Below are positions 379 through 21,206 of a DNA stretch of 32,786 nt, piece after piece. Every line of letters starts with the position of its first letter. Within the stretch, counting starts at the first letter, position 1. The notes under the pieces are model-generated. The model did not search any database. It had not been told where the DNA came from and saw only the letters and a list, made by a program, of their open reading frames with translations. Position numbers and translations under genes: made by a program. Source of the DNA: an uncultured Candidatus Saccharibacteria bacterium (GTDB lineage Bacteria > Patescibacteriota > Minisyncoccia > UBA6257 > UBA9933); the NCBI GenBank assembly GCA_964398445.1, contig CAYNMK010000002.1, positions 1 to 32,786 on the forward strand. The letters are read 5' to 3'.

Positions 379-543
379 AACAGGTTGAGACAAATTTTTA
401 ATTAAGGGCGTATGGTGGATGCCTTGATATCAAATGGCGATGAAGGACGTGGCGTGGCTGCGATAAGCCTCGGTGAGGTGCTTAGCAACCTATGACCCGG
501 GGATTTCCGAATGGGGAAACCCTCTGCGGTAAACCCGCAGAAC

Positions 544-605
544 CGTGTCTCGCTTTTGTTCGACACTTATAAATTGGAATAAGTGGTAAATAAAAGTGAG
601 ACACG
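544..605 (+). repeat. 23S hairpin insertion/expansion 1 (helix 9-10 region)
   Basis: cgtgtctc...gagacacg stem. It contains the recurring motif gtgtctcgcttttgttcgacac and is longer than the corresponding E. coli segment. Confidence 0.45.
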
Positions 606-658
606 GAGCGTACCCGCTGAAGTGAAACATCTCAGTAAGCGGAGGAAAAGAAAAAAAT

Positions 659-838
659 CGTTTGCGCCTCACTGCGTTTGGCACAGACTAAAACCAAAGG
701 TAAAAAATAAAAAATTAAAAATAAAAATGTAAAAACGGAAAAATGTTTTTAGGTTTTAGGAATTTTTGATTTGTATTTTTTATTTTTAATATTTAATTTT
801 TGGTTTGAGTGAGTGTTGAGCATAGTGAGGCGCAAGCG
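659..838 (+). repeat. 23S hairpin insertion 2 (~E. coli nt 215 region)
   Basis: It interrupts ...gaggaaaagaaa...|...attccccaagtagcggcgagcgaa. gcgcctcact (664-673) pairs with agtgaggcgc (824-833). The ~80-nt AT-rich arms pair with many G-U positions. Confidence 0.7.
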
Positions 839-877
839 AATATTCCCCAAGTAGCGGCGAGCGAAAAGGGAGGAGCC

Positions 878-1047
878 CAAACCTAACCATACCTCACTGC
901 GTTCGGTATGGAATTATTTAATTTTTAATTTTTAATTTTTATTAAATTTTTAATGTTTTAATTTTCAAACATTAAGTCATTCATTAGAAATTAGAAATTG
1001 AAAATTAGAAATTCTACCCGAGCATAGCGAGGTGTGGTTGGGGGTTG
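878..1047 (+). repeat. 23S hairpin insertion 3 (~E. coli nt 270 region)
   Basis: Basal pairing is aacctaaccatacctc / gaggtgtggttgggggtt. The 5' arm has (aattttt)3 and the 3' arm has (attagaa)n, paired through U-G wobbles. Confidence 0.7.
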
Positions 1048-1392
1048 TAAGAATTTCACGCTACTTTACTAATCGCAAAGTTCCTGTTTATGGGATTTTG
1101 TGATTTGTGAAGCAAGAAAAGGTTACAAAATTATTTGTTAGCTGAATTTATTGGAAAGTAAAACCAAAGAAGGTGATAGTCCTGTAAGCGAAAACGAATG
1201 ATCCTTTTAGTGAAGTATCTTGAGTAACTCGATGACAGAATACTTCGAGTGAATCATCCGGCACTATCCGGAAAGGCTAAATACATTTGATAATCGATAG
1301 CGAATAGTACCGTGAGGGAAAGGTGAAAAGTAGGCCGGCAAGGCCGTTGAAATAGAACCTGAAACCATATGCTTACAAGGAGGCGGAGCTTT

Positions 1393-1545
1393 GTGTCTCA
1401 CTTTTGTTCGACACCGAATTTTTAATTTTTAATTTTGAATTTCTAATGAATAATTAAATGATTTAATGTTTAAAGCATTAAGTTGTTAGAAATTAGAAAT
1501 TAAAGAATTAGAAATTGGAACGAGTGGCGAGCGAAAGCGAGACAC
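1393..1545 (+). repeat. 23S hairpin insertion 4 (helix 25 region, a classical IVS site)
   Basis: It sits between ...caaggaggcggagc and agtgacgctgtgcc. The base is gtgtctcacttttgttcgacac ... gcgagacac, with an AT-rich periodic distal hairpin. Confidence 0.7.
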
Positions 1546-1654
1546 GGAGTGACGCTGTGCCTATTGAAGAATGAGCCAACGAGTTTATGTATATCGCTAG
1601 TTTAAATCTTATGAGATGAAAGCACAGGGAAACCGAGTGTTAAAAGCGCGTATA

Positions 1655-1814
1655 CCGTTGCTGTCGCAACGGAAATCCTAAATCCAAAATCCTAAACCCT
1701 AAACAAATCCAAAATTTTAAATCCAAAATTCAAAACAATTTTTTGGATTTAATGTTTAAATTTTATTTAGGATTTAGAGTTTAGAATTTAGAGTTTCCGC
1801 TGCGGTAGCAGCGG
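1655..1814 (+). repeat. 23S hairpin insertion 5 (domain II, ~nt 640 region)
   Basis: Mini-hairpin ccgttgctgtcgcaacgg (1655-1672), then a long hairpin of cctaaat/ccaaaat 7-mers paired with ggattta/gagttta units, then mini-hairpin ccgctgcggtagcagcgg (1797-1814). Confidence 0.7.
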
Positions 1815-2331
1815 TCGGCGGTATGTGTAAGACCCGAAGCCAAGCGAGCTTGCCCTGGCCAGGATGAAGTTTGATGAAAATCGAATGGAGGTCCGCACCA
1901 GTAGGTCGTTCAAAACCTTTGGATGAGCTGGGGCAAGAAGTGAAAAGCTAATCGAGCTTGGTAATAGCTGGTTCTCTCCGAAATAGCTTTAGGGCTAGCG
2001 TCCGGGGAAAATTTATGTGGGGTAGAGCTACTAGTTAAGAAGTAAGGGTGAAAGCCTGATCTTTTTAGTCAAACTCCGAATACGCATAAAATTAGCCTGG
2101 GCAGTTAGACCATGGGGGCTAAGCTCCATAGGTCAAAAGGGAAACAGCCCAAATCGTCGTCTAAGGTCCCTAAATATTTGCTAAGTGTTAATAAGGCAGT
2201 GATTTGCCACAGACAGATAGAAGGTTGGCTTAGAGGCAGCCATCCTTTAAAGAGTGCGTAACAGCTCACTATTCGATGGCGAATTGCGCCAAAAATTTAC
2301 GGGACTAAGCAAATTACCGAAGACACGAATA

Positions 2332-2473
2332 CCAGTGCTTCGCACTGGAATTTTCAATGATCAATTTTTAATTTTCATTGAATTTTTAATCTTTTAATTT
2401 TCAAACATTAATTTATTAGAAATTCATTAGAAATTAGAAATTGAAAATTAGAAATTCCAATGCGCAGCATTGG
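2332..2473 (+). repeat. 23S hairpin insertion 6 (helix 45 region, a classical IVS site)
   Basis: ccagtgcttcgcactgg (2332-2348), then an AT-rich heptad hairpin, then ccaatgcgcagcattgg (2457-2473). It sits between ...ccgaagacacgaata and tgtggtaggagagc. Confidence 0.75.
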
Positions 2474-3016
2474 TGTGGTAGGAGAGCATTTCAATCGCGT
2501 TGAAGCTTTAGCCGTGAGGCAGAGTGGAGCGTTTGGAAGAGAAAATGTTGGTATGAGTAACCGCAAAGCCGATGAGAATTCGGCTCCCCGAAAATCCAAG
2601 GTTTCCTCCGCAACGAAAATCGACGGAGGGTTAGGCGATCCTAAGGCGATGACGAAAGTCGGAGTCGATGGACAGCTGGTTAATATTCCAGCCCGCTGAA
2701 CATAGTTCGATGGAGAGACGGAGAAAAAAAGATCAAGCATCTTAATGGTTTGGTGTTATTGGTTATTAGAATTGTTGTTTTGGCAAATCCGGGCAACTAC
2801 CTTTAATGGTAAAATTCGCAAATTGATAAAACTTCGATTCGTCGGAGAATTTGATTGAAGAGTCTTCTGAAAAAAACTTCTAAGATTTCCTATGTTTGGC
2901 TTCGTACCGTAAACCGACACAGGTGGATGAGGCGAGGAGCCTCAGGGGAACGAGTGAGTCCTCGTTAAGGAACTCGGCAAAAAAGCGGCCGTAACTTCGG
3001 GATAAGGCCTGCCTGC

Positions 3017-3197
3017 CCAGTGTTTCGCACTGGAGTTTTCAATGAATAATTGTTAATTTTTATTAAATTTTTAATGTTTTAATTTTTGAACATTAATTCA
3101 TTAGAAATTGCTTGCCCCGTAGTGAATGCGAAGCATTCTATTGCTGGGGATTAGAAATTAATAATTAGAAATTAGAAATTCCACTGCGGAGCAGTGG
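3017..3197 (+). repeat. 23S hairpin insertion 7 (helix 63 region) with a nested branch
   Basis: ccagtgtttcgcactgg (3017-3033), then a long hairpin, then ccactgcggagcagtgg (3181-3197). An extra branch at 3110-3150 contains cccc...gggg and the mini-hairpin gaatgcgaagcattc. Confidence 0.75.
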
Positions 3198-3319
3198 TGT
3201 GGGCCGCAGCGAAAGTATCCCTGGCGACTGTTTATCAAAAACACAGCTCCCTGCGAACTCGTAAGAGGATGTATAGGGGGTGACGCCTGACCGATGCGAG
3301 AAGGTTAACGGTGGCAGTC

Positions 3320-3450
3320 TTGTGTTTCGCACTTAGTTTATGAGTTTCGCTTCATTACAGTTTAATGAGTTATTGAGTTTTAATTGATTAAACTACAGTG
3401 AGCGGAACGAATGTAACTCATTAATTCATAAACTGGGTGCGGAGCGCGAG
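3320..3450 (+). repeat. 23S hairpin insertion 8 (domain IV, ~nt 1860 region)
   Basis: It is flanked by ggcagtc / gactgcc pairing. gtgtttcgcac on the left and gtgcggagcgc on the right enclose a hairpin of gagtttN 7-mers. Confidence 0.65.
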
Positions 3451-3525
3451 GCCGACTGCCCGAAGCCCTCGTCAATGTCAGCAGTAACTATAACTGTTCT
3501 AAGGTAGCGCATTTCCTTTCCGGGT

Positions 3526-3907
3526 AAGGTGGAACTTGCCCCTTTTCGCCGCGAGGTGAATCGAAGAAGTCAGCTTATAACGGTGAAGCCCTAATTCTTT
3601 AATGATGTATTTTGTGATATTATATAAAGAATGGGTAATACCGTGGGAAGCCTAACTAGTGCTGTCGCACAAGTGACTAACGATAAATGACCTATGACCA
3701 ACGACAAAAAAGTTGTTAGTCGTTAGTTGTGAGTCGTAAGTTGCTCGCGCGGAGCAGTGGTAATGGCCCTGTAACGACTTAGGCGAAAGCCTTAATAATT
3801 CTTTTTTAAGAATTATTATACGCTGACCACTTAACTTAAATTATAAATAATTTAAGTTAAGTTGAAGATATAGTCTGATACTTATCGTGAGATAAGCAAA
3901 CATATAG
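3526..3907 (+). mobile_element. Group I intron 1 in 23S (after U1951, E. coli numbering; no ORF)
   Basis: The exon junction restores ccgggt|aagttccgg. The 5' exon ends in T and the intron ends in G. The internal guide aactt-gccc (3533-3541) pairs with the 3' exon aagtt (P10) and the 5' exon gggt (P1, with a U-G pair). Core motifs present: cttataacggtgaag, taataccgtgggaag, ccctgtaacgactt, aagatatagtct. Confidence 0.85.
3656..3760 (+). repeat. Hairpin element inserted in a peripheral loop of intron 1
   Basis: Mini-hairpin gtgctgtcgcac, then a hairpin of gactaac/gataaat/gacctat/gaccaac 7-mers, then tgctcgcgcggagca...gtgg. It occupies the same intron position as the HEG ORF in intron 3. Confidence 0.6.
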
Positions 3908-4404
3908 AAGTTCCGGAGCGCACGAAAGGCGTAACGACTGGGGAACTGTCTCAACGAGGAGCTCGGTGAAAATGCAATTCCCGTGAAGATGCGGGATACC
4001 TACAGCAAGACGAAAAGACCCCGGGAGCTTTACTGTAGCTTGATATTGATTTTAAAATTTTGATGCGTAGCGTAGTGGGGAGGCTTTGAAACTTTACTTT
4101 CGGGTAAAGTGGAGCCGCCAATGAAACACCCATCGTTAAAATTTTAAAATCTAATCTAAATGGCAAAAACATTTGGAGACAGTGTTTGGTGGGCAGTTTA
4201 TGTGGGGCACATTCCTCCTAAAAAGTAATGGAGGAGTTTATTAAGGTTGGCTTGGCCCGGATGGAAATCGGGCTGGACGTGTAAAGGCAAAAGCCAGCTT
4301 AACGGCAAGGCCGACAAGCCGCGCCGATGCGAAAGCAGAACTTAGTGACCCGACCATTCTTTATAGAAAGGTGGGAGACAACGGATAAAAGCTACCCCGG
4401 GGAT

Positions 4405-4686
4405 AGAACCTGAAATAAGGTTTTGTTGTCCTCCTCATAGTAATGTGAGGTAAAAAATGCGACTTATAACGGTGAAATCAAAATTGGTCTTCCCTGGAAA
4501 CAGGTTTTAGGATTTTGGTAATACCGTGGGAAGTCTAACCACTGCGGAGCAGTGGCAATGACCCTGTAACGACTTAATCTAAGAAGATTGGATGGTAGTT
4601 TTTAAACTATCATAATACGTCGCGCCCATTAAAGTTTTTTTAATGGGAAAAGATATAGTCTAATCATTCGCAAAGCGAATAGATTG
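4405..4686 (+). mobile_element. Group I intron 2 in 23S (after U2449; no ORF)
   Basis: The junction restores ggggat|aacaggctg. The guide gtt-gtcctc (4425-4433) pairs with the 3' exon aac and the 5' exon ggggat, with a U-G pair at the splice site. It has the same core motifs as intron 1 and ends ...agattg. Confidence 0.88.
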
Positions 4687-4821
4687 AACAGGCTGGTTGC
4701 GTCTAAGAGTTCATATCGACGACGCAGTTCGGCACCTCGATGTCGGCTCATCACATCCCGGGGGTGGAGAAGCTCCCAAGGGTTTGGCTGTTCGCCAATT
4801 AAAGTGATACGCGAGCTGGGT

Positions 4822-5648
4822 GAATTAATCCAAAAATGAGCCCAGCAAAAATTGACTCATAACGGTGGAGTCCGAATGCTTAAAGTGTTAAAATTTAAGT
4901 AATGGATAATACCGTGGGAAGATTACAATCTTTATTTTCACCACATCAATTTGATGTGATTATTGGATCATTATTAGGAGATGCACGACTTGAATGTCGT
5001 TCAATTGGATTAAGACATTCAATTACCGCACGATTCAGAGTGCATCATGGAGAAAAACAAAAAGATTATGTTTTTTGGAAATACGAAATTCTTAGAAGTT
5101 TAGTAATAAAAGAGCCTCAGAAAAGTATATGGAATAATCCAAAAAGAAATATTCAAGAAATTTCTTGGTATTTTCATACGAAAAGCTTAAAAGAATTTGG
5201 TGTCATTTATAGATATTTCTATAAAGACAACATTAAGATTCTTCCAAAAAATTTATTTAATCTACTTACTCCTAGAATGATGGCAATATGGTTTATGGAT
5301 GATGGCTCAAATACCAAAGAAAGCTTTACGTTAAATACGCATAGTTTTTCAGAAAAAGAGCAATTACATATAGTTGATTTTCTAAAAAACAATTATAAAA
5401 TTATAGCTACTTTAGTAAAAGATAGAAATAAATTTAAAATCAGAATTAATAAAAGTAGCTATCAGAAATTCGTAAACATTATTAAGCTATTTATTATTCC
5501 TTCTATGATTTATAAGATTGATAATCCCCGTAACGACTTGTCATATAATATGACAGAGTTGCCTTATTAAAGGCAGTTAACACGTCAGCTCCGACTTAAC
5601 ATCGGAGAAGGTATAGTCTAATGCTATTAGTAATAATAGAGAATATTG
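4822..5648 (+). mobile_element. Group I intron 3 in 23S (after U2584/2585, in the peptidyl-transferase loop), carrying a LAGLIDADG gene
   Basis: The junction restores gctgggt|tcagaccgtcgtgagacagg. The guide tga-gcccagc (4837-4846) pairs with the 3' exon tca and the 5' exon gctgggt (7 bp, U-G pair at the splice site). Core motifs present: ctcataacggtggag, taataccgtgggaag, ccccgtaacgactt, aaggtatagtct. Confidence 0.88.
4902..5570 (+). CDS. Double-motif LAGLIDADG homing endonuclease (intron-encoded)
   Basis: 222-aa ORF inside intron 3. It has two LAGLIDADG-type motifs, IIGSLLGDARLE and IWFMDDGS. Confidence 0.85.
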   Translation: MDNTVGRLQSLFSPHQFDVIIGSLLGDARLECRSIGLRHSITARFRVHHGEKQKDYVFWKYEILRSLVIKEPQKSIWNNPKRNIQEISWYFHTKSLKEFGVIYRYFYKDNIKILPKNLFNLLTPRMMAIWFMDDGSNTKESFTLNTHSFSEKEQLHIVDFLKNNYKIIATLVKDRNKFKIRINKSSYQKFVNIIKLFIIPSMIYKIDNPRNDLSYNMTELPY

Positions 5649-5773
5649 TCAGACCGTCGTGAGACAGGTTGGTCTCTATCTGCTGTAGGCGTTGACGCTT
5701 GAGGGAAGTTGACCCTTGTACGAGAGGATCGGGTTGAACGAACCTCTGGTCTACCGGCTTTACCACCAGGTGA

Positions 5774-5804
<31 letters not shown>

Positions 5805-5958
5805 GAGCTGAAAGCATCTAAGCACGAAGCCCCTCCCAAGATTAGGCGTCTTAGATTGGTCGAAGACTACGACCTTGATAGGCTTTAGGTGTAAGCATAG
5901 TAATATGTTTAGCCGAGAAGTACTAATAAATCATATTTTTTTGTTTCTATCTAAATTT

Positions 5959-6106: not shown

Positions 6107-6221
6107 TTTCTTGGTGATTTAATTTATCGTGCTCTACCCGATTCCATTCCGAACTCGGAAGTAAAAGCGATAAATACCGATGATACTTAGTTTTCTAGGG
6201 AAAGTAGGTTTCGCCAAGATT
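6107..6221 (+). rRNA. rrf: 5S rRNA
   Basis: ttcttggtg...cgccaaga forms the terminal helix. Conserved ccgaactcggaagtaaaa and ggaaagtagg segments are present. It lies ~155 nt downstream of 23S. Confidence 0.85.
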
Positions 6222-20276: not shown

Positions 20277-21206
20277 ATGACTAATATTAACTATTTGCTT
20301 AAAACTTATCTTAATTATTTAGAAATTGAAAAAAATCGTTCTCCAAAAACATGTGAAAATTATGAACGGTATCTTAATGCATTTATAAATTTTATTCCTT
20401 CTAGTGGCGAGCAAGACAAAATTAAGACTGAAAAAGATATTACCATTGACAAGGTAAGAGACTTTAGGTTGTATTTAGCTAGAGTTAAAACTCAGAAAGG
20501 CGAAATTCTCAAAAAAACCACTCAGGCATATTATATGATTGCCTTAAGGAATTTTTTAAAATATTTAATTAAACAAGATTATGGCGTTTTATCGCCAGAT
20601 AAAATTGAATTACCAAAAACTTCAACGCGGCAGATTGAAATTATTGAATATAAAGATTTAGAAAGATTACTTGAAGCGCCTAAAGCAAAAGATTTGCGTT
20701 GTTTGCGCGATAGAGCCATTTTGGAAATTTTTTTCTCTACTGGCTTACGAATTTCTGAACTTTGCAAGCTTAATCGTTATTTTGATTTAAATCGTGGCGA
20801 GATTACTGTTCGAGGAAAAGGCGATAAATTGCGAATAGTTTTTCTTTCTGAACGCGCCAAAAAAGCGATTAAAAATTATTTAGACAAACGGACAGACACC
20901 GAAGAAGCGCTTTTCATAAGCTTAACAAAAGCTAAGTCGCCGAAAATAATTGGCAGGATTATTCCCAGGACGATTCAAAGGTTGGTAAGTTTTTATGCCA
21001 GAAAAGCGGGTATTTCAGATAAAATTACTCCGCATCAACTTCGTCATCAATTTGCTACAGATCTTTTAATAGGTGGCGCTGATTTGCGTTCGGTTCAGGA
21101 ACTTTTAGGGCATGCTAATGTTTCTACTACTCAAATTTATACCCATCTTACCAACAAAGAACTTCATGAAATTCATAAAACCTTTCATGCTAGGCGTCGG
21201 AAATAA
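20277..21206 (+). CDS. Tyrosine site-specific recombinase, XerC/XerD family
   Basis: 309 aa. N-terminal SAM-like domain. Catalytic-region motifs RISELCKL, HQLRHQFAT and LLGHANVSTTQIYTH. Confidence 0.85.
   Translation: MTNINYLLKTYLNYLEIEKNRSPKTCENYERYLNAFINFIPSSGEQDKIKTEKDITIDKVRDFRLYLARVKTQKGEILKKTTQAYYMIALRNFLKYLIKQDYGVLSPDKIELPKTSTRQIEIIEYKDLERLLEAPKAKDLRCLRDRAILEIFFSTGLRISELCKLNRYFDLNRGEITVRGKGDKLRIVFLSERAKKAIKNYLDKRTDTEEALFISLTKAKSPKIIGRIIPRTIQRLVSFYARKAGISDKITPHQLRHQFATDLLIGGADLRSVQELLGHANVSTTQIYTHLTNKELHEIHKTFHARRRK

Follow-up and report, generated by a model that had tools for sequence, protein, structure and literature searches.

Three group I introns of a widespread family, very probably independent site-specific elements, in the 23S rRNA gene of an uncultured Candidatus Saccharibacteria bacterium

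Introduction

Group I introns in the 23S rRNA genes of the candidate phyla radiation (CPR) are said to have been first seen by Brown et al. in 2015. The present study concerns three such introns in the 23S rRNA gene of an uncultured Candidatus Saccharibacteria bacterium (assembly GCA_964398445.1), located in a stretch of 32,786 nucleotides of contig CAYNMK010000002.1 which is referred to below as the window. Introns 1, 2 and 3 are inserted at sites L1951, L2449 and L2584 (E. coli numbering), respectively, and are very probably mobile group I introns of subgroup IA (probably IA3), each specific to its site and independent of the other two. In a catalogue of CPR 23S genes, 82% of the genes carry insertions and 45% of the insertions are group I introns, which are clustered around the peptidyl-transferase centre, the named sites including 1917, 1931, 1952, 2593, 2604 and 2657 (Tsurumaki, Sato, Saito & Kanai 2024, PMC11270868). 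Forms with and without an open reading frame (ORF) were found at the same sites, the LAGLIDADG clades were site-specific, and horizontal spread was ascribed to homing. The window shares with that catalogue the occurrence of several group I introns per 23S gene near the peptidyl-transferase centre and their patchy distribution, and site 1952 of the catalogue is our site 1951. The main text of the catalogue names neither 2449 nor 2584, which may be among its 23IS9-11, and it made no comparison of ribozyme cores between sites; a literature search on sites L2584, L2585 and L2586 found nothing useful. The finding reported here is real but ordinary, in that the arrangement is already catalogued in CPR 23S genes.

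The yeast mitochondrial omega intron Sc.L2449, which contains I-SceI, presumably occupies the same site as intron 2. I-SceI resembles the endonuclease of intron 3 (E 2.9e-20); here the I-SceI-like gene lies in the L2584 intron, whereas the L2449 intron of the window is without an endonuclease gene. The site of intron 1 is also that of Cbu.L1951 of Coxiella burnetii, a bacterial 23S group I intron (Raghavan et al. 2007; listed in PMC1995217). With its 720 nt and a LAGLIDADG gene, and compared by site and size only, the Coxiella intron is similar to the L1951 introns of three genomes of our comparison set (G181, G383 and G404, 710-725 nt), while the window copy differs from it in being 382 nt long, in having no ORF and in carrying a hairpin element in P6. 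Introns of subgroup IA3 at LSU/2500 and LSU/2593 in archaeal metagenome assemblies have their endonuclease gene in P6, as does intron 3 (Nawrocki et al. 2018, PMC6125680). Sites 2500 and 2593 in Patescibacteria carry close variants of the core blocks of the window introns, in which P7.1/P7.2 are present. Reverse splicing has been put forward as the route by which related rDNA introns reached new sites in fungi (Bhattacharya et al. 2005, PMC1299323), although a review stresses that direct evidence for this is lacking. The fungal introns are like the family described here in that one ribozyme family occupies different rRNA sites with site-matched guides; unlike what is proposed there, no sign of recent movement between sites is seen within the genome of the window.

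Results and discussion

Identity and core structure of the introns

The window was compared with E. coli rrlH by blastn, with the numbering verified on known landmarks. The exon alignment is broken at E. coli 1951/1952, 2449/2450 and 2584/2585 (window 3525/3908, 4404/4687 and 4821/5649) and is otherwise continuous, the insertions lying directly after U1951, U2449 and U2584. The breaks agree with the intron coordinates and site names proposed in the initial annotation of this DNA, which had also described the three inserts as group I introns of one family. The Rfam group I model RF00028 matches intron 1 across the whole model (53.2 bits, gathering score 50) and intron 2 with 45.7 bits (E 7.5e-10). 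Only the 3' part of intron 3 is matched (18.9 bits, E 0.08), because a 669-nt ORF occupies its P6 loop, and the P3, P4, P6 and P7 pairs of this intron were checked by block anchors. Taken together, the covariance-model matches, the core helices and the guides identify all three as group I introns.

Each of the three introns contains four core blocks, designated P, Q, R and S (Table 1), which are absent from the rest of the 562-kb genome. The Q block is identical among the three, and the P, R and S blocks are near-identical. The shared blocks listed in the initial annotation were thus recovered, but two of its consensus strings are slightly off: the last shared block is AAGRTATAGTCT and not aaRgtatagtct, and the first one ends with AAA in intron 2 and begins with CTC in intron 3. 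Between P7 and the 3' strand of P3, each intron has a stretch folding into two hairpins, P7.1 and P7.2 (z -4.7, -3.8 and -4.0; 0 of 200 shuffles as stable), and P8 and P9 also fold as hairpins in all three.

To count the core helices, 73 family introns were processed with a script that used the four blocks as anchors. P3, P4, P6, P6a and P7 are almost always canonical, with 94-100% canonical pairs in P3 and 97-100% in both P4 and P7; for P4, P6, P6a and P7, 88.6% of the pair cells are canonical, a share that drops to 32-52% once the partner is shifted by one or two bases. Most positions of P3 show four or more pair types, and covariation is found in P3, P4.1 (A-U/U-A), P6a and P7.1, the latter swapping A-U for G-C beside a bulged base between subfamilies. 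The three introns belong to a single structural family, and the expected folding of the core as P3-P9 is supported for the P3/P7 pseudoknot, with its guanosine-binding P7, as well as for P8 and P9. Considering that P7.1/P7.2 are present, the introns belong to subgroup IA. Within it our analysis points to IA3 as the probable assignment, since the core resembles that of the L2500 and L2593 introns, which are of a type assigned to IA3 (PMC6125680).

Guides and splice-site pairing

The guide sequences are tggaactt-GCCC for intron 1, tttgtt-GTCCTC for intron 2 and tga-GCCCAGC for intron 3. P1 and P10 amount together to 12, 12 and 10 bp, respectively, which was matched in 7, 0 and 28 of 5000 shuffles of the first 80 intron bases scored on P1+P10 length. 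In all three introns, the 5' splice site is marked by a U.G pair and the last base is a G, and the exon matches E. coli from the next base. The proposal that each guide pairs with both of its own exons, with these two terminal features, is thereby confirmed beyond what shuffled sequences give. G181, a genome from another family of the order, shows a compensatory double change at its L1951 intron which supports P1: CGGGT in the exon is replaced by CAGGT, and GCCC(N) in the guide by GCCTG.

The guides are also found outside this genome. GTTGTCC is common to the L2449 introns of four loci (L035, L041, L073 and L160), which include one Patescibacteria and one Gammaproteobacteria metagenome-assembled genome (MAG), and TGAGCCCAG is common to the L2584 introns of L071, L073, L130 and L034; the MAGs with the latter guide comprise two further ones, one of them a Saccharibacteria, and the Gammaproteobacteria MAG that carries GTTGTCC. 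As same-site introns elsewhere share each guide, the guides were inherited with the lineage of the site and not newly made in this genome.

Same-site relatives and intron turnover

One congener (G001) has an L2449 intron with 84% identity to intron 2 over 266 nt, and another (G002) has an L2584 intron with 91% identity to intron 3 across the full intron (835 aligned positions). When intron 1 was used as a BLAST query against 401 genomes of the order, L1951 introns were recovered in G181, G383, G404, G309, G169 and G317. The first four, which belong to other families, have L1951 introns with the core subtype, the guide and the start of P9 of the window copy, and in that of G181 the first ten bases after the S block are the same as in intron 1. 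Within the genome of the window, in contrast, BLAST aligns the core only: four short pieces for introns 1 and 2, 77 nt at 69% for introns 1 and 3, and pieces of 14-22 nt for introns 2 and 3. With no alignment among the introns outside the core, the three copies are not assembly duplicates of one intron. Separate Logan contigs of one DNA run span each whole intron and both of its exon junctions with zero differences, although this run may be the source sample and is therefore not independent; the only DNA runs containing the stretch are hydrothermal-vent metagenomes, possibly the source.

The sets of introns differ among the three congeners, with sites 1951, 2449 and 2584 occupied in this genome, ~1921, 2262 and 2449 in G001, and 1931, 2262, 2500 and 2584 in G002; at the empty sites of the congeners, the exon alignment is uninterrupted. 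G181 (locus L180, G181:C4:34000-41000) has seven introns, at 1931, 1951, 2449, 2500, 2584, 2593 and 2656. Since it holds all three of the sites plus four more, the trio is not special to the genome of the window. RF00028 matches were obtained in 55 of the 101 relatives searched. Such a patchy distribution is the pattern that would be expected from gain by homing followed by loss.

Two further features of these relatives were observed. The exon between the 2584 and 2593 introns of G181 is just 9 nt long. The L1951 introns of G169 and G317 (L170:1342-1544; L172, minus strand, 201 nt) are just 201-203 nt long and belong to the other core subtype (GTAGAGACTA / TAGTCC), yet their guide and first 15 bases hardly differ from those of the long L1951 introns, which would mean either two colonisations of the site or a swap of guide and core modules.

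Phylogeny of the intron cores

A core alignment of 77 introns was built from fixed windows around the four anchors (113 columns); two mis-parsed composite inserts and every intron lacking a found anchor were omitted from the tree rows. Intron 2 groups with the G001 copy (support 99/89) and intron 3 with the G002 and G181 copies (99/98). The rows nearest to intron 1 are other L1951 introns, both in the 77-row tree and in a tree of 75 rows, and in the latter it falls inside an L1951 group (94/89). In agreement with a grouping by site, the site labels require 19 changes on the tree, compared to a mean of 49.5 when shuffled. A tree constrained to have the trio as a clade is worse by 65 log-likelihood units, and the approximately unbiased (AU) test rejects it (p 0.014), as it does a clade of introns 2 and 3 (p 0.014).

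Origin of the three introns

The initial annotation took the introns for paralogues that looked like the result of spread within the genome by guide change. On such a reading one intron would have multiplied in this genome or its recent ancestors by a change of guide alone, and the three copies would be each other's closest relatives. The agreement of the four blocks, complete in Q and nearly so in P, R and S, would fit such a history, as would the position of the trio within a single subfamily clade of 41 rows with the GTAACGACT / TAGTCT signature (93/95 in the 75-row tree) and the likeness of introns 1 and 2 in P6 discussed below. The same blocks are however found at many other sites and in other phyla, where they are the signature of a many-site family, and both the guides and the peripheral helices are shared with same-site introns elsewhere, the congeners having relatives of introns 2 and 3 at 84-91% identity against core-only matches within the genome. 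Besides the rejection of the trio clade and the grouping by site, intron 1 is missing from both congeners, one of which also lacks intron 2 and the other intron 3, while G181 holds all three site lineages in another family. A multiplication of this kind is thus very improbable: intragenomic spread is refuted for this genome and genus and survives only for the deep history of the intron family, and any retargeting long predates this genome. A general caution is that finding the same core blocks in more than one intron of a gene does not prove duplication within a genome, because a widespread intron family carries them at many sites. Some points do weigh against the reading as three independent, self-splicing introns. 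The AU test does not reject introns 1 and 2 as a clade (p 0.14), and for introns 1 and 3 its rejection is only marginal (p 0.089); 113 columns leave many forks, including deep ones, without resolution, with intron 1 in no strongly supported set; and the comparison loci L038-L157, a part of the set, were chosen for an exact Q-block match, a bias in favour of the intron family, although relatives fetched via RF00028 give the same picture of the family core. RNA of this organism was also absent from the RNA runs sharing words with the stretch, which are groundwater and freshwater metatranscriptomes sharing about 10% of the words, in exons only. Lastly, a 33-nt stretch of P6 links intron 1 (positions 224-256) and intron 2 (140-172) at 94% identity and is absent from the G001 copy of intron 2, which has a different P6 loop. 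An exchange between introns 1 and 2 within the genome, or a double insertion of the same hairpin element, is possible.

The introns could accordingly have arrived independently, after which gene conversion exchanged P6 between introns 1 and 2, or one and the same mobile GC-hairpin element entered both. The extra likeness of the two does sit in P6, where both hold sequence of the GC-ended hairpin element seen in non-intron 23S expansions, and the middle of intron 1 (query positions 160-256) matches non-intron places in other genomes (G007, G008, G278, G215, G002, G035 and G040). The conserved R block itself makes up about half of the 33-nt stretch, however, and the CTAAC / AATG flanks of P6 are common family-wide, and the remainder of the shared stretch is only about a dozen bases; we consider such a partial exchange somewhat unlikely. 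A different objection would be that the inserts are not spliced at all, but stay in the rRNA or are excised without ligation like RNase III-processed intervening sequences, resulting in a fragmented 23S. In favour of this, the RNA runs examined yielded no RNA of the organism, an intron of group I that stays unspliced in 23S rRNA is reported for Chlamydiales (Everett et al. 1999), and the roughly eight non-intron inserts of the same gene may be processed in that way. Against this, the core, the guides, the U.G pair and the terminal G are all intact and are conserved in relatives, including the compensatory exon and guide change of G181. A break or insert would moreover be hard to tolerate at two sites in the peptidyl-transferase loop (U2449 and U2584/U2585), as is established knowledge, and we consider this explanation very improbable. 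Metatranscriptome contigs joining 3525-3908, 4404-4687 and 4821-5649 were considered as spliced RNA of this organism and rejected: they have many differences, and the first two joins and a near variant of the third are also present in a DNA run, so they are rRNAs or rRNA genes of other organisms.

Three independent, site-specific introns remain the explanation we strongly favour. Each folds into a P3-P9 ribozyme core, on which the guide aligns the splice sites, P1 with the end of the 5' exon (through the U.G pair) and P10 with the start of the 3' exon; going by these features, the introns are predicted to be self-splicing. All three would have to leave the 23S precursor, because they interrupt conserved functional regions in domains IV and V, namely just 3' of helix 69 (L1951) and at two places in the peptidyl-transferase loop (L2449 and L2584). 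Each intron belongs to a lineage tied to its own rRNA site, and such lineages would move between genomes by endonuclease-driven homing into an empty site, often being lost again. Intron 3 has kept its I-SceI-like endonuclease gene, and introns 1 and 2 would be derivatives without an ORF. Homing is, in our interpretation, the means of spread, and the common core would reflect membership in one widespread intron family and not duplication in this genome.

The endonuclease gene

The 222-aa product of the ORF in intron 3 matches the Pfam family LAGLIDADG_2 (PF03161) with an E-value of 2.7e-44 over profile positions 2-168 of 168, with an intact frame, and the closest solved structure is I-SceI. The product is thus predicted to be an I-SceI-like homing endonuclease. 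The ORF begins within the Q block and terminates past the R block; ORFs which reach into the ribozyme core are known in other bacterial rRNA introns (PMC1995217). It is also intact in the G002 copy of intron 3, with 201 identical residues. No ORF of at least 40 aa was found on the + strand of introns 1 and 2, the one in intron 3 being the only such intron-internal ORF, in agreement with the earlier proposal that a single copy retains an endonuclease.

The family core at other sites

Among the matches listed, the family core is present at nine or more other rRNA sites, and the same four blocks are found, often letter for letter, at 23S sites 2500, 2504, 2511, 2535, 2575 and 2656 and at 16S site 1060, in many Patescibacteria as well as in MAGs labelled Gammaproteobacteria, Actinomycetes, Omnitrophota and Solirubrobacterales. 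Many of the matches to the 14-base Q block across all genomes were chance ones in unrelated bacteria, and loci were retained only if the match fell inside an rRNA insertion. A sister subtype (GTAGAGACT / TAGTCC) is present at 2593, at part of the 2500 sites and at other sites. One contig of a MAG labelled Gammaproteobacteria (L073) has family introns at 2262, 2449, 2500, 2584 and ~2600, which points either to horizontal spread over a wide range or to an rRNA contig placed in the wrong bin.

It is conceivable, if short of an even chance in our estimation, that one IA-type scaffold with the GTAACGACT / TAGTCT core has come to occupy nine or more rRNA sites in Patescibacteria and other phyla (23S 1951, 2449, 2500, 2504, 2511, 2535, 2575, 2584 and 2656) while changing little beyond its P1/P10 guide, the window containing three products of old, repeated retargeting. 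Site 1951 would then appear to have been taken twice, by two core subtypes with nearly the same guide. If this is true, the family is a natural data set for tests of ectopic transposition in bacteria, by reverse splicing or module exchange. More generally, one core with many guides across the family could serve the study of target-site change in group I introns.

The 23S rRNA gene and other rRNA inserts

The host genome of the window comprises 562 kb in 46 contigs, the window being contig C2. The bacterial 23S rRNA gene spans ~392 to ~5935 according to Rfam and the blastn comparison, and a 5S gene is located downstream (6110-6219). The first Rfam pass squeezes all 2925 model positions into 392-4898, ending early because the 827-nt intron 3 disrupts the model alignment; the true 3' end is near 5935. 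The introns matter little beyond correct annotation, automated callers truncating this 23S gene. The total length of 5.5 kb is due to the three introns and to about eight additional non-intron inserts of 145-260 nt, which are AT-rich palindromes with GC-rich hairpin ends (window 522-3461).

Table 1 Coordinates of the introns, their parts and the other inserts of the 23S rRNA gene in the window
Feature	Position	Strand	Remarks
Intron 1, site L1951	3526-3907	+	382 nt, without ORF
Intron 2, site L2449	4405-4686	+	282 nt, without ORF
Intron 3, site L2584	4822-5648	+	827 nt, endonuclease gene in P6 loop
Guide of intron 1	3530-3541	+	3530-3537 pairs with 3' exon (P10, 8 bp); 3538-3541 GCCC pairs with exon GGGU (P1, 4 bp)
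Guide of intron 2	4422-4433	+	4422-4427 pairs with 3' exon (P10, 6 bp); 4428-4433 GTCCTC pairs with exon GGGGAU (P1, 6 bp)
Guide of intron 3	4837-4846	+	4837-4839 TGA pairs with 3' exon (P10, 3 bp); 4840-4846 GCCCAGC pairs with exon GCUGGGU (P1, 7 bp)
P block (J3/4 and 5' strand of P4)	intron 1 3574-3588; intron 2 4463-4477; intron 3 4856-4870	+	
Q block (3' strand of P4 and start of P6)	intron 1 3636-3650; intron 2 4519-4533; intron 3 4907-4921	+	
R block (3' strand of P6, J6/7, 5' strand of P7)	intron 1 3767-3780; intron 2 4562-4575; intron 3 5526-5539	+	
P7.1/P7.2 hairpin pair, between P7 and 3' strand of P3	intron 1 3779-3820; intron 2 4575-4616; intron 3 5539-5580	+	
S block (J8/7 and 3' strand of P7)	intron 1 3865-3876; intron 2 4650-4661; intron 3 5608-5619	+	
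Enlarged P6 loop of intron 1 with GC-ended hairpin element	3651-3766	+	this kind of element also fills 23S expansions
LAGLIDADG_2 homing-endonuclease ORF (predicted)	4902-5570	+	669 nt, 222 aa, in P6 loop of intron 3
Non-intron 23S inserts	near 660-833, 879-1136, 1389-1549, 1651-1830, 2322-2467, 3008-3224, 3308-3461		blastn against E. coli
Sites of non-intron inserts (E. coli numbering)	~230, 270-290, 540-553, 652-668, 1157-1177, 1704-1770, 1854-1887		

A fourth RF00028 candidate in the same genome (C1:50005-50291, 18.3 bits) was dropped, as it was not reproduced on the fetched locus. The unlinked 16S gene (G000:C3) carries about 1 kb of inserts. For one of them, directly before E. coli 517/518 (the 515-region; G000:C3 ~20415-20769, L179 ~1416-1770), no RF00028 match was obtained at E <= 0.1, and its 5' exon would terminate in G, not U. 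This insert ends in group-I-like R and S blocks of the other subtype, CCCTCAGAGACTT and AAGATATAGTCC, and may be an atypical or decayed fourth intron.

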